DNA from: a virus
Lineage: Duplodnaviria; Heunggongvirae; Uroviricota; Caudoviricetes
Length of the DNA: 15,937 nt
IMG/VR virus record: IMGVR_UViG_2529292909_000010
Strand: one strand, 5' to 3'
In this document: piece after piece, positions 1,419 through 10,751 of the stretch
Numbering within the stretch: position 1 is the stretch's first letter
Layout: every line of letters begins with the position of its first letter
Made by a program: the position numbers and the translations under genes
The notes under the pieces: model-generated
Told to the model about the DNA's origin: nothing
The model's input: only the letters and a program-made list of their open reading frames with translations
The model's database searches: none

Positions 1419-3338
1419 TTAAAAATCAGCCTGACTCGGGATCAGTTTTTGCCAGATAACTGAAACGTATTTTGCCTGGTAACGGGCGTCATCAAGTGCA
1501 TTATGGCGCTCACCTTCGAATGGAATAGCCGTTCTGGCATCGAAGTCTATGGCTTTCCCCAGCTCAACGATTGTGCGTACATCGCGATCGTTGTAGTAAC
1601 GCCACGGGCAGGGGATCCCCTGCCGTTCGTATGAACGGCGCAAAATCGTGTTGTCGAAGTTGGCTCCATTTCCCCAGACCTGAACAAAAAATTCACCGGA
1701 GTTTTCGTCGATAAATTCCCGCAATTGTAACAGTGCATCATCTAACGGGATTTCATCGGTCATAATGGCAGATTGCGCTTCGCGTGATTGCTTAAGCCAC
1801 CATTTAATGGTGTCCCGATCAATGACTCCGCCAGCAGTTTCCAGATCGATAGTCTTACTAAATTCCGGTCCCATATCTCCGGTTTGCGGATCGAAAAATA
1901 TTGCACCTATTGAGATGATCGGGGCATCAGGATTTTTTCCCATGGTTTCAAGGTCGATCATTAGATGGTCACACGTCCTGCTGGTGGATGTGATTTCTTG
2001 ATGACCGTTCACCTTAATTGAGTGATCTGCCGTCTCGCCAGTTTCATTATCGCTATCGTGATGCTGATTGCCGCCAGTGTTCTCTTTGTGTGGATGTTCA
2101 GCGCCTTCCATTTCCTCCGGATCATCTTCCTGAACTTCAACCTGATACTCTTCATCGAATGTTTCCTGGTATGTTGCGTCGCCCATCACCGCGCCACAAT
2201 CAGGGCAGTTGCCGCCGCCGGTCTGACCGCAGGCGGTGCAGATCTTTTCCGGTTCCTGTTGCACTACTGGTTCAGGTTGTTTCGTTTCTGGCTCGTTTTG
2301 TTGCGTACTTGGGCTGTTTTGTTCCGCTTTCTGGTCGTTCTGTTCCGTTTCTTGCTGGTTCTGGTTCACAGAATCGCGGGTCTGGATCCCATTAACCCAT
2401 TTCGGATCATTCGGGTCGCTAATCCCTTCAACAAATTCACCACGTGATACTGCAAGCAGTTCATCGGCGTCAGGCTGGCTGATATTGGCTGCCTGCATAA
2501 TTTTGTTTACTTCGTCAGCGGTAACTTTTACTGACCCTGGTTGTGCGGTCGTGTCAGATGCACCAGTATTTTGTTGTGAACCTGAGTATGTACCGTTTTT
2601 GCGGGCGAAATATTCTTCTTTCGTGATTTCAGTAGCCCCAGCAGACAGCGCCTTATCCAGACCAGAAAGTTTGTTTGCGCGACCGTATTTTTCGCCATCC
2701 TTGTCGGTGAAGAGGAAGTAGAACGGCCCCTCACGTTCTACAGATGGTTCGACTTCCACTTTGCATTCGGTTTTTTCGTTGTCTGGAATTGCCGTTTCCA
2801 CTGCATCAGTTTCTGGTACTGGCGACGAGAGAGTATCAGTTGCGCTCTGATTTGTTCCTTCATCTTCAAACACGCCCTTTGTAGTCAGGTATTCAGTAAT
2901 GTATTTGTTCAGTGCCACAGGGTCTTTGTGAATGTCGATCGGACGTTCACGGACAAGGCCAAAAATAGTCTGGCGGTCGTAGCGAAGGGCATCAGGCTGT
3001 TTGCGCATTGATGCCGAGATACGCTTCCAGTCTTCGCGGTCGTTGTCGATAACTTCATTTTTTGCCCAGCGATGGATGCTGCCGTCAATGTTTCCGGCAT
3101 CCACATCACCAGGCCAGAGAGCGTAGGCCAGTTCGTCATCTAGTGTTTTCCATGTCTGCTTGTATTCGCGATGAATGGCAGCAATGACCGGGTTGATTTT
3201 TCCTGTTGAATTTTCAGTGTGCTGTTGATTGGCTCTGGCGCGGGCGAGATCAACAACAGACGTGTATTTTCCGGCTTCCTTGCGTTCACCTTCGCGACGT
3301 TTTTCCAGATGCGCATCTCTGCCTGAATTTCGGGCCAT
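1419..3338 (-). CDS. Phage exonuclease with C-terminal DEDDh 3'-5' exonuclease domain (639-aa ORF; true N-terminus uncertain)
   Basis: C-terminal about 180 aa carry DEDDh-like motifs (MIDLETMG; WGNGANFD; HNALDDARYQAKY). The centre is an acidic/Gln-rich low-complexity linker containing a CxxC...CxxC zinc-ribbon-like element (CTACGQTGGGNCPDCG). No clear Shine-Dalgarno before the ATG at 3338, and the first about 200 bp overlap the upstream ORF out of frame. Confidence 0.7.
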   Translation of the reverse strand: MARNSGRDAHLEKRREGERKEAGKYTSVVDLARARANQQHTENSTGKINPVIAAIHREYKQTWKTLDDELAYALWPGDVDAGNIDGSIHRWAKNEVIDNDREDWKRISASMRKQPDALRYDRQTIFGLVRERPIDIHKDPVALNKYITEYLTTKGVFEDEGTNQSATDTLSSPVPETDAVETAIPDNEKTECKVEVEPSVEREGPFYFLFTDKDGEKYGRANKLSGLDKALSAGATEITKEEYFARKNGTYSGSQQNTGASDTTAQPGSVKVTADEVNKIMQAANISQPDADELLAVSRGEFVEGISDPNDPKWVNGIQTRDSVNQNQQETEQNDQKAEQNSPSTQQNEPETKQPEPVVQQEPEKICTACGQTGGGNCPDCGAVMGDATYQETFDEEYQVEVQEDDPEEMEGAEHPHKENTGGNQHHDSDNETGETADHSIKVNGHQEITSTSRTCDHLMIDLETMGKNPDAPIISIGAIFFDPQTGDMGPEFSKTIDLETAGGVIDRDTIKWWLKQSREAQSAIMTDEIPLDDALLQLREFIDENSGEFFVQVWGNGANFDNTILRRSYERQGIPCPWRYYNDRDVRTIVELGKAIDFDARTAIPFEGERHNALDDARYQAKYVSVIWQKLIPSQADF

Positions 3339-3889
3339 TTGGCACCAGGCTTACATTTATGCTTAACCCACCCGATGGCATGCAGCTTAAGCTCCGGATA
3401 CATAGCGTTAACTTCTGGCATTTTCATCAACGCTTCAACGATATGGCCGTCGAATGTTGCCATGTCTTCCTGCAACAATTCCTGTGCGCTAATCACCATA
3501 TCAACAGTGATGTTTTCACATGTGTCGAACTTAACCATGAGAGCGTTCTGTACTTCAGGGGCCAGCTTGTCAAAAGTGACGTTCATCAGATCGGATTCAG
3601 TCTCAACCGGGACAAAAGAAGCAGAATCCTCATCCCAGCGGTTTTCCTGCATATATTCAGCATCCCATGAATCGAGGGCAGGGCGGGGTATGCCAGGTTT
3701 ATCCTCGCAGATAATAAATTTATAAGCGCAGTCCTGAGCAGCCGGATAATGTTCCAGGAACTGCCAGTGAAATTTTGCTCGAGCACGGCGTTCGTCGCCA
3801 GCTTCAATGGCTGTGGCTACAGCCACAGCGCCTTCTTCCCTTGTTGCCAGTTCGTCAGGAATGGCGGCGCAAATAAAGACTTTACTCAT
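3140..3889 (-). CDS. Hypothetical early-left operon protein (249-aa ORF; C-terminal about 50 aa doubtful, possibly the N-terminal part of a frameshifted fusion with the exonuclease)
   Basis: Long ORF with a GAGG Shine-Dalgarno before the ATG at 3889; protein-like composition for roughly the first 195 residues; the 3' end overlaps the 639-aa ORF by 199 bp in another frame, with an A5/T5 homopolymer at 3300-3304 in the overlap. Confidence 0.55.
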   Translation of the reverse strand: MSKVFICAAIPDELATREEGAVAVATAIEAGDERRARAKFHWQFLEHYPAAQDCAYKFIICEDKPGIPRPALDSWDAEYMQENRWDEDSASFVPVETESDLMNVTFDKLAPEVQNALMVKFDTCENITVDMVISAQELLQEDMATFDGHIVEALMKMPEVNAMYPELKLHAIGWVKHKCKPGAKWPEIQAEMRIWKNVAKVNARKPENTRLLLISPAPEPINSTLKIQQEKSTRSLLPFIANTSRHGKH

Positions 3890-3982
3890 TTTGTTTTAAC
3901 CTCATGACAGATTTAAGGATGAACAAATCCCTGCCATTGCTGGCATATAAGAATGAAACCGGATATTTATTACGGAACTGTT

Positions 3983-4174
3983 TTAAAGACCTGCCGGGAT
4001 TTCGATATTATCCTGGTGAATAACTTTATCGACCGGGTAACAGTTACCGGGAATTTTCTGTTCGGTTGCTGCAGTCATACACTCCTGCATTGTCCTGTGA
4101 ACACTGACTGCAATATCAACTGGCTCTCCGGAAACAAGAAAAACTGTCAGAACAAGTGCAAATGCTGTATTCAT
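3983..4174 (-). CDS. Small hypothetical protein with N-terminal signal-peptide-like segment (about 63 aa from the internal Met)
   Basis: From MNTAFALVLTVFLVSGEPVD: hydrophobic N-terminal stretch followed by a polar region; its ATG (4174-4172) overlaps the stop of the upstream ORF in an ATGA arrangement, suggesting translational coupling. Confidence 0.35.
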   Translation of the reverse strand: MNTAFALVLTVFLVSGEPVDIAVSVHRTMQECMTAATEQKIPGNCYPVDKVIHQDNIEIPAGL

Positions 4175-4359
4175 TGCCAGCATCCTTTTTGTATCGGACG
4201 TAAACGGGCCAACATTGAAAGAATGCATATTTTATTTAATAGCTCCCGTTCGTGTTTTCTCTTGTTAATGGCATCTTCAGTAAATACAGGGTTACTGATA
4301 GTGACACCAATTTCAAAACAACCTTCAGACGTATTAACGTTTGGTAATAACGTTTTCAT
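4171..4359 (-). CDS. Small hypothetical early protein (about 62 aa from the internal Met)
   Basis: ORF in the leftward early operon; TGAGGG Shine-Dalgarno about 9 nt upstream of the ATG at 4359; stop overlaps the start of the next small ORF. Confidence 0.35.
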   Translation of the reverse strand: MKTLLPNVNTSEGCFEIGVTISNPVFTEDAINKRKHERELLNKICILSMLARLRPIQKGCWQ

Positions 4360-4848
4360 TATCGCGCCCTCAACAATGAGTTTTGTGATGCGGTGCCTGG
4401 TGCCTCCAGGTGACGTTAACCAGTTAACAATTAACGCCGGATACAGAGAATCCAACCATAACACTGTTTTTGGTTTTAACTGTTCCGCGTGCGCTTAGCC
4501 GCATTCACCGCATCACAAAATTCACTTTAAAAAGGGCGGCAGAGCAGTCACGGAGTAAAACTGATACCGCCAAACGTCACCAGAAAATTGATAACAGAGG
4601 GCGTTGCAGCGGGGTTGTCACTTAAGCGTATGGTCAACCTGACAACCCGGTGTCCTCAACGGGGGAAGGAATAACCCCGCCATACTTACCGCCGCGCCAT
4701 TTCGCGGATTGCCACAACCAGAAGCGCACGGTCGAAGAAATTTAACGACAAGACTTATATGCAAAGGGATCTCGCCGTGCGCTTTCGTGTTATGCCCTGA
4801 CTTTTCAGGGTAAATTAACCTGTGGAAACCTGTTTTTACTGGCGCTAA

Positions 4849-9115: not shown

Positions 9116-9694
9116 ATGAGAGACATTGATGTAAGAAAGGCTGTGCATGCCAAGATTCTGAGAGATCATCATAAAGATCCTGACACCCTAATCATTGATG
9201 AGTTTACGATGAATCTAGGGGCTAGCAGAGCTGATATAGCAGTGATCAATGGGCTTATACATGGTTATGAGTTGAAGAGCAAGAGTGATAACTTGCTCAG
9301 ATTACCAGCGCAGGTGCAACATTACTCATCAGTGATGGATAAAGTAACTTTGGTTGTCTCTGATTGCCATCTTTATGATGCTTTAAGCATAGTTCCATCA
9401 TGGTGGGGGATAAAGCAAGTTACGCAAGGTGCACGGCAAGGTATCCATTTAAAAACAATTCGAACTAGCAAGTTGAATCCACAAGTGGACAAACTTTCCT
9501 TAACAATGCTTCTTTGGAAAGATGAATTGCTTTCCCTATTAAGTGATGTAGGGGAGCTACAGAATTTGAAAAATAAACCTAAACGCGTCTTATGGTCAAA
9601 ACTCGCCAATAGTATGGATGTTGGCGAGCTTCGTGAAGCTGTTCGAGTTAAACTTAAAGCCCGTAAAGAGTGGCGAGTTGCTCAACAACCTTAG
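9116..9694 (+). CDS. Putative PD-(D/E)xK-fold nuclease-like protein (192 aa), accessory cargo gene
   Basis: AT-rich ORF; motif arrangement E(IIDEF)...D(RADIAV)...E-x-K(GYELKS) fits a restriction-endonuclease-like active site; may belong to the family usually annotated 'sce7726 family' (unverified recollection). Confidence 0.6.
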   Translation: MRDIDVRKAVHAKILRDHHKDPDTLIIDEFTMNLGASRADIAVINGLIHGYELKSKSDNLLRLPAQVQHYSSVMDKVTLVVSDCHLYDALSIVPSWWGIKQVTQGARQGIHLKTIRTSKLNPQVDKLSLTMLLWKDELLSLLSDVGELQNLKNKPKRVLWSKLANSMDVGELREAVRVKLKARKEWRVAQQP

Positions 9695-10751
9695 TTATGT
9701 GATGGTTTTGCCCAATCCTACGCCATACCTCTGGGCTACCAAATTTATAGTTACCAGAGGGATTGGCTTTGTAGGCTTGATACTCGTTTGCATAATATTC
9801 TATGTCTCTATCTCCCGCACAGAATGTAGGCCCTGAATATTCTCGATGAGCAAGAATATCCTCACTATGTTTACCATATTGTTCATAACCAAAGCGATTA
9901 GCTACTCTTCCTCGAAATACCCAAAAGTCATTATCTCCAGAGTATCTGACGCTGGCAGATACGCTAGGGAATCGCGTCGAAAGCCTATTAAAGTCGGGGT
10001 GCTGTACTCCATAATCACTATAAATCACATTTCTGGCAAGTTCTTTTCTATTCATTAAACTCTGCCATAAAATCCACTCGATTCGAGGTTGAGAATATAG
10101 ACCAACAGAAATATCACTGAGATCTGTAGGAAATGAACCCCCAGAAAGAATCACTTTTCTGTATTCATTGAGGTGCGCCAGATTGTTTATCAATCCCATT
10201 GCCAAAGTATATAGTTCGCCGGAATTAATTTTATCCTCGGTTAACTCATCTCTTAAGTCAATAATTATATCAATATTTGATAAAGGAATTCCCAGATGAT
10301 TAATGTAATGCGTTATTAATTGTGGGTTAACCAGATCTAACGTGGTTAATCTCAAGCATATTTCATTCTGCATTAATTCATCAATCGCTCTTTTATAGTT
10401 AGATGGGCGAGTTGGTGAACTGACAGGAATAACTCTTATCCCCATATCTCTAACTTGATTAACCGCATTTATTATAGGGTAATGATCTTCAGGAGAAATA
10501 AAATGCTCTTCAATTAATAATCCATCAATATAAACACCTTGCATATCTGAGCAAGATTTTGAGACTTTCTTTCCGAACTCTATAAGAGTCTCGTTATAAC
10601 TCTTTAAGGCAATACCTGAATCAGGGTCAATTGGCACTGGTTCAATTTCGAGTAATGGCAAAATTTTTGATTTCTTTTCAATGGATAGCTGCGATAAAGC
10701 TGATAACTCAGAACGTTTCGCTTTCAGAATAGGAATATATGAAATTGTCAT
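9654..10751 (-). CDS. Large uncharacterised partner protein (365 aa), possibly P4 'beta'-family-like
   Basis: AT-rich ORF convergent with the 192-aa gene, 3' ends overlapping by 41 bp; no motif I can assign; the family assignment is an unverified recollection. Confidence 0.6.
   Translation of the reverse strand: MTISYIPILKAKRSELSALSQLSIEKKSKILPLLEIEPVPIDPDSGIALKSYNETLIEFGKKVSKSCSDMQGVYIDGLLIEEHFISPEDHYPIINAVNQVRDMGIRVIPVSSPTRPSNYKRAIDELMQNEICLRLTTLDLVNPQLITHYINHLGIPLSNIDIIIDLRDELTEDKINSGELYTLAMGLINNLAHLNEYRKVILSGGSFPTDLSDISVGLYSQPRIEWILWQSLMNRKELARNVIYSDYGVQHPDFNRLSTRFPSVSASVRYSGDNDFWVFRGRVANRFGYEQYGKHSEDILAHREYSGPTFCAGDRDIEYYANEYQAYKANPSGNYKFGSPEVWRRIGQNHHITKVVEQLATLYGL

Follow-up and report, generated by a model that had tools for sequence, protein, structure and literature searches.

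A DEDDh exonuclease gene of lambdoid prophages that shares its tether with recE

What does a DEDDh exonuclease at the end of a long acidic linker do in the early region of a lambdoid prophage, and what is the linker? The question is raised by the Caudoviricetes record IMGVR_UViG_2529292909_000010 from IMG/VR, a stretch of 15,937 nucleotides called the window below. In it, a minus-strand open reading frame (ORF) of 639 amino acids (aa) at 1419-3338 had initially been annotated as a complete mosaic protein, with a C-terminal DEDDh domain held by a low-complexity, acidic, Gln-rich linker containing a zinc ribbon. The most useful new point from our analysis is that this "linker", far from being private to the gene, is a recombination joint that it has in common with recE. 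We think it reasonably probable that this is a prophage gene whose nuclease part is swapped by recombination within the tether, and whose DEDDh domain would trim 3' DNA ends during lytic growth without a phage annealase.

Gene boundaries and domain architecture

The ORF at 1419-3338 exists as called; it covers the 3' three-quarters of a gene broken by a frameshift and is not the complete protein it was taken for. Annotated relatives have, under their match to the window, one coding sequence (CDS) of 2472 nt encoding 823 aa and named "exonuclease" or "3'-5' exonuclease". Global alignment of window positions 1419-3889 with one such CDS (L001:9001-11472) gave 27 mismatches and 1 gap. The frameshift site lies at 3300-3304 (minus strand), where the coding strand reads A5 and relatives have A6 (ATC TGG AAA AAA CGT), or T5 versus T6 on the plus strand. 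When the base is restored, the translation runs to 823 aa with zero internal stops, and the whole exonuclease gene spans 1419-3889 on the minus strand, an intact-type homologue of the K-12 ydfE pseudogene. Because of the 1-nt deletion, the 639-aa ORF starts with 12 codons (MARNSGRDAHLE) that are read out of frame, and the ORF at 3140-3889 is the N-terminal piece of the same gene.

The window's A-run deletion was found in none of the 3853 E. coli records (0/3853) with the surrounding 61-mer, where the best match of 98.4% equals one gap. The complete E. coli genomes that were checked have A6, and in protein P0002 (5 member sequences) the same run apparently reads A7. With A5 in the window, A6 in complete genomes and A7 in P0002, the run is evidently prone to indels, via biology or sequencing; the window copy has either been inactivated by the deletion or contains a homopolymer sequencing error. 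Programmed frameshifting was considered and rejected: TGG AAA AAC does not fit the canonical heptamer X XXY YYZ, and in all other copies the A6 run is intact. The possibility that the linker is an assembly artefact, a concern raised by the initial annotation, was rejected as well, the linker being colinear with thousands of genomes.

Domain architecture was predicted with an AlphaFold model of P0001, a protein 96% identical to the window ORF, made from a 39-sequence alignment. According to the model, the product consists of four folded units (YdfE_N, YdfE_C, a small beta/alpha domain and the DEDDh exonuclease), with a predicted disordered tether ahead of the nuclease. The N-terminal alpha/beta domain (aa 1-205; 3276-3889, minus strand, as for all domains that follow) is modelled with confidence and matches Pfam YdfE_N (PF27430). 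The helical middle domain (aa 241-344; 2859-3170; predicted local distance difference test score, pLDDT, 88-93) matches Pfam YdfE_C (PF27432). Both matches, precomputed for P0001, are to newer Pfam families; P0001 has the two together, and K-12 YdfE is 99% identical to aa 1-255, as expected of a member of the YdfE family. No part of the scaffold is more widely conserved than YdfE_C, which occurs in almost all the 171 representative clusters described below, and its region is distantly common to RecE aa ~278-390 (25% identity, E=2e-5, BLASTP).

Next comes a small beta-hairpin/helix domain (GPFYF...GRANK...EITKEEYxARK; aa 385-437; 2580-2738; pLDDT 88-94), which falls in a gap of RecE in the alignment and is conserved in scaffold proteins with a YdfE_N-type N-terminus. 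The acidic tether (aa 438-637; 1980-2579) is predicted to be disordered throughout, Cys motif included (pLDDT 25-50). The initial annotation put the linker at about 150 residues; the low-confidence stretch of the model spans ~200 residues. The C-terminal DEDDh 3'-5' exonuclease domain, of DexA/Rv2179c type (aa 640-823; 1419-1967), is again modelled with confidence.

The initial assignment of this last domain is borne out. Pfam PF16473 (Rv2179c-like) matches ORF aa 458-629 over profile positions 2-177/177 (E=1.8e-67; 226.9 bits against a cut-off of 27), and a sequence search of the PDB with the 823-aa protein matched T4 DexA alone (8KEL, E=1.4e-6), with scaffold and tether unmatched. Among structural neighbours of the model in the PDB, Foldseek placed RNase T first (3v9x, E=7.9e-5, TMt 0.61), followed by oligoribonuclease and REXO2. 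The DEDD residues are present on alignment: D462 and E464 (MIDLET), D562 (NFDN) and H612...D617 (HNALDD), in ORF numbering, align with DexA D7, E9, D119, H186 and D191, and they are also conserved in divergent homologues. (The published DexA list gives E12, aligned here as E9.) Judged from this alignment the catalytic residues are intact, and the domain would be expected to act as a metal-dependent 3'-to-5' exonuclease.

The tether as a joint shared with recE

Aligned to K-12 RecE, the protein matches from aa 262 to 626 (RecE 278-592; E=7e-63, BLASTP), with identity spread very unevenly. Residues 474-625 are 68% identical to Rac RecE 454-591, a 14-aa gap included (E=4e-67), in contrast to 25% for the upstream part. 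The corresponding DNA, a block of ~450 bp common to Rac recE, lies at 2016-2471 (minus strand; 78.6% identity in a blastn alignment of 443 columns, of which 42 are gap columns). Third codon positions are 71-93% identical in the block and ~25% identical in both flanks, the drop taking one to two 30-codon windows. Since synonymous sites are conserved and the borders are sharp, the block is best explained as recently exchanged DNA and not by protein-level constraint alone, and the earlier description of the linker as gene-specific low-complexity sequence no longer holds. The crystallised RecE nuclease starts at residue 606. In a review, residues 564-866 are given as the RecE nuclease domain, and the N-terminal region is described as having no known function (PMC11611040). 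By these start positions, the shared block ends where the nuclease domains begin.

The family set was obtained by a full-library search with ORF aa 60-455, which gave 171 representative clusters among 1.84 billion proteins; reference segments were mapped in the 67 representatives that reach 400 aa. All pairings of N-terminal type (YdfE_N or Exonuc_VIII) with nuclease (DEDDh or PD-(D/E)XK) were found among these 67. The hybrid P0124 (805 aa) combines RecE 1-592 (88%) with residues 474-823 of this exonuclease (91%), the two matches overlapping in the shared block, and in P0144, P0216 and P0228 YdfE_N is joined to PD-(D/E)XK. The shared block is a crossover site, as these natural hybrids show. 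The protein had been called a mosaic from one sequence; with a shared recE block and hybrids, it is more of one than could then be seen.

Gene order differs with the nuclease. A RecT-like gene comes next after PD-(D/E)XK-type genes in K-12 Rac, L033 and L035, whereas DEDDh-type genes abut xis/int, with no adjacent annealase, in the window, L001, L002, L032 (the locus of P0124) and L036/L037. From this contrast, the exchanged cassette would be "nuclease domain plus recT" in the one case and "DEDDh domain alone" in the other.

One scaffold is common to the DEDDh protein, to RecE and to a third class with a weak likeness to annealases. In eight proteins (P0176, P0188, P0192, P0200, P0201, P0215, P0225 and P0232) the C-terminal module is ~260 aa long (phrog_7838) and has no nuclease motif. 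Six of the eight show a weak, sub-threshold similarity to Rad52_Rad22 at KKSLTDAxKKALSxLGFSADV, and a profile of the module found no sequence match in the PDB. One such gene (L034:5001-7337) sits between lambda-Gam-like and Mu-Gam-like genes. These proteins may be scaffold-annealase fusions, as far as the sequence similarity goes, and the weak annealase likeness together with the Gam-like neighbours suggests that the scaffold is tied to recombination functions. Two further rearrangements were seen: P0164 (703 aa) is RecE aa 1-527 joined in frame to RecT sequence, and P0018 (645 aa) is this exonuclease minus ~aa 25-203 through an in-frame deletion.

Within the tether, ORF residues 300-457 have a net charge of -28 (E 14.6%, Q 11.4%, D 8.2%, N 7.6%, P 6.3%), in agreement with the acidic, Q/E/P-rich tract first described ahead of the nuclease. 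The DNA encoding the Q/E-rich heptad tract (2277-2360, minus strand) is a tandem repeat, degenerate, of 21 bp x4 (Tandem Repeats Finder score 80, 71% matches). In E. coli, homologues of 822-831 aa vary in the length of this tract by one 7-aa unit; P0023 and P0111 have the unit twice, and 14 aa are absent from RecE at the same place. These differences support length variation of a modest kind; the initial annotation had called such linkers hotspots of it.

The putative zinc knuckle, CxxC-x7-CxxC (CTACGQTGGGNCPDC), lies at 2196-2240 (minus strand; C367, C370, C378 and C381 of the 639-aa ORF). Both CxxC pairs of the initial annotation are real, although their spacing is x7 and not N9. Random placement of the protein's 7 Cys produced such a motif in 13/200000 trials. 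All four Cys are invariant relative to RecE and are retained in the divergent P0143, P0194 and P0211; one allele has a Gly missing from the Cys loop. On the other side, Pfam DZR scores E=0.12, below threshold, at a position where pLDDT is <50, and the motif is present in 7/67 long family representatives and absent from 60/67, which makes it an optional insert for the family. A different tether motif, G-x-G-x-F-S-[IV]-[DE]-x-L (here SRGEFVEGISD, ~2420-2452), is more widely conserved than the knuckle and recurs right after the folded scaffold in divergent relatives without the rest of the RecE-shared block. It is a candidate docking motif.

Operon context and candidate functions

The gene is already catalogued and is ubiquitous in E. 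coli prophages, the window holding a frameshifted copy. DNA of the intact gene was matched in 4770/5426 complete E. coli genomes, phrog_2082 ("exonuclease") matches end to end, and a frequent NCBI name is "3'-5' exoribonuclease". Literature searches on ydfE, on RecE together with DEDDh and on Rv2179c together with phage turned up no functional work on this protein.

The window covers the early region of a lambdoid prophage, and its closest relative in the collection is integrated beside potC. Minus-strand genes are ordered int (1-1119), xis (1088-1366), exonuclease, ydfD, dicB, DUF1391 and racR; plus-strand genes after racR are cro-like, ydaT-like, replication, RusA and Q. The leftward early operon ends with the exonuclease gene, which lies between ydfD/dicB and xis/int. 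Directly downstream on the same strand, the excisionase gene (1088-1366; Pfam Exc E=7.8e-5; "excisionase" in L002) takes the slot that recT has after recE in Rac. As the initial annotation had noted, none of the window ORFs is a recognisable RecT/Bet/Erf-like gene. A plus-strand ORF at 3953-4498 (181 aa) is probably not a gene and was discarded: neither Pfam nor PHROG gave a match, and it runs antisense to ydfD/dicB, annotated in 99.9%-identical genomes. Farther along, a convergent pair at 9116-9694 (+) and 9654-10751 (-) is annotated as "sce7726 family" and "beta family protein", and its PADLOC model matches are "cll" (2.4e-28) and PD-Lambda-2_C (1.8e-41); the pair (9116-10751) is probably an anti-phage defence moron within the prophage.

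If the gene is, as we favour, one with a swappable nuclease part, homologous recombination inside the recE-shared segment would swap the downstream cassette. After prophage induction, the scaffold would bring the tethered nuclease to the ends of linear DNA, a role also supposed for the likewise uncharacterised N-terminal region of RecE. The nuclease would then trim 3' ends with no phage annealase involved, either to process the ends or to serve recombination.

Several points weigh against this proposal. Foldseek of the full model against the PDB matched the DEDDh domain alone, leaving the scaffold domains without informative structural neighbours, and the predicted zinc knuckle has no confident model and is missing from most relatives. 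Selection as well as exchange could partly explain the high identity of the block, and the comparison of cassettes with annealases covers 3 PD-(D/E)XK-type and 5 DEDDh-type loci. The substrate (DNA or RNA), the polarity and the biological role are all deduced from family membership, and no established phage recombination system consists of a 3'-to-5' nuclease without an annealase. Finally, a related stand-alone DexA homologue of E. coli has a reported defence role (PMC12153337).

Two other functions survive about equally well, and both seem improbable to us. The first is anti-phage defence, on 5-hydroxymethylcytosine (5hmC) DNA of T-even phages in the manner of the E. coli DexA homologue EcD ("HREX"), or against RNA phages in the manner of "TONDO". 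EcD is reported to digest 5hmC DNA, T4 DNA among it, and to protect against T4 (PMC12153337, 2025), while prophage ISG20-like DEDDh nucleases with auxiliary domains ("TONDO") block RNA phages (PMC13344964). The window domain is 39.5% identical to an EcD-like protein of 189 aa, closer than either is to DexA, and the window's prophage also has the PD-Lambda-2-like gene. This EcD-like protein was recovered via a published primer and has the stated A78, W132 and E145; a stand-alone 189-aa DexA-like exonuclease with the published EcD features is carried by six IMG/VR loci (L008, L013, L023, L024, L026 and L029), from whose sequences the published EcD reverse primer differs by one extra A.

The residues argue the other way. 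The equivalent of DexA W152 is Tyr (Y582), replaced by Cys or Thr in certain E. coli alleles; that of D169 is Lys (K595) in a three-way alignment or Ala in a larger one, the loop alignment being uncertain; and the tetramer-forming D90 of DexA is kept as Asp (D534, ORF numbering) where EcD has Ala78. By the published criteria, therefore, the domain falls outside the 5hmC-specific type. In addition, P0001 has no PADLOC match, and the gene lies at the distal end of a repressed leftward early operon, in the exo/bet or recET slot, which is not a typical moron position. The TONDO set, for its part, comprises ISG20-like proteins of <500 aa from another DEDDh clade (PMC13344964).

The second function, just as improbable, is unrelated to recombination: host takeover and nucleotide scavenging, as for T4 DexA, or processing of RNA 3' ends, as for M. 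tuberculosis Rv2179c. The domain's Pfam family is named after a 3'-5' exoribonuclease, the NCBI name often says the same, RNase T, oligoribonuclease and REXO2 are among the Foldseek neighbours, and T4 DexA has a role in scavenging host DNA (PMC12153337). However, scaffold and tether are the same as those bearing RecE's recombination nuclease or the annealase-like module, and the gene fills the recombination slot of the operon. Temperate lambdoid phages, moreover, are not known to depend on scavenging host DNA. That the ORF is instead a complete 639-aa protein, with a gene-specific low-complexity zinc-ribbon linker binding a recombination partner, is very improbable: linker composition and Cys motif are real and the widely conserved SRGEFVEGISD-type motif could dock, but the ORF start is made by the frameshift, which already refutes these gene boundaries, the linker is a module common to RecE and the knuckle is missing from 60/67 long relatives.

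We therefore return to the gene with a swappable nuclease part as the preferred account. A broader version of it, which we regard as doubtful, would make the YdfE/RecE scaffold and acidic tether a general phage hub for DNA ends with interchangeable effector cassettes: a 5'-to-3' nuclease plus RecT, a 3'-to-5' DEDDh nuclease by itself, or a Rad52-like annealase in fusion. Were it true, the DEDDh version would define, in most E. coli strains, a recombination or end-processing route that does without a phage annealase, and the tether motif and zinc knuckle would recruit a host partner that explains the linear-linear boost given by full-length RecE. The gene is among the most widespread E. coli prophage genes, and its scaffold and tether are common to RecE, whose N-terminal two-thirds improve direct cloning (linear-linear) in recombineering. 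If modules are swapped as proposed, comparing RecE-type, DEDDh-type and annealase-like versions could reveal the scaffold's role.

Comparison with known systems

T4 DexA and EcD belong to the same Pfam family as the window domain and share its fold and D-E-D-H-D catalytic set. Both are stand-alone proteins of ~190-230 aa, in contrast to the window domain, which is the C-terminus of an 823-aa scaffold protein and in which the proposed 5hmC-recognition residues W152 and D169 are not conserved. Lambda Red (Exo/Bet/Gam) has no sequence relationship to the window protein, whose nuclease polarity would be the opposite, and the window is without annealase or Gam; the two are alike in their analogous leftward early operon position and in a presumed nuclease function at DNA ends.

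K-12 ydfE of the Qin prophage corresponds to aa 1-255 of this gene (99% identity) and likewise follows ydfD/dicB. It is cut by IS2E and is without tether and nuclease, whereas the window copy is full length with a 1-nt frameshift.

The closest comparison is with RecE (exonuclease VIII) of Rac. The nucleases differ in kind, DEDDh (3'-to-5', as predicted) in the window and PD-(D/E)XK (5'-to-3') in RecE, and so do the family matches: PF12684 has no match in the window protein (RecE 4.1e-28), and PF06630 (Exonuc_VIII; RecE 6.1e-98) has none in the 823-aa protein, which has YdfE_N instead. The NCBIfam model ExoVIII (NF007259) reaches 285.3 bits against a cut-off of 1269, matching only aa 238-626. 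The window protein also has the extra domain at aa 385-437, and its gene is followed directly by xis and not by recT. Yet both genes occupy the same operon slot, between kil/dicB-type genes and xis/int, and both proteins have a long N-terminal region of uncharacterised function. Their central regions are homologous, the tether with its putative zinc knuckle is nearly the same in DNA, and in the hybrid P0124 the two are joined in a single protein.

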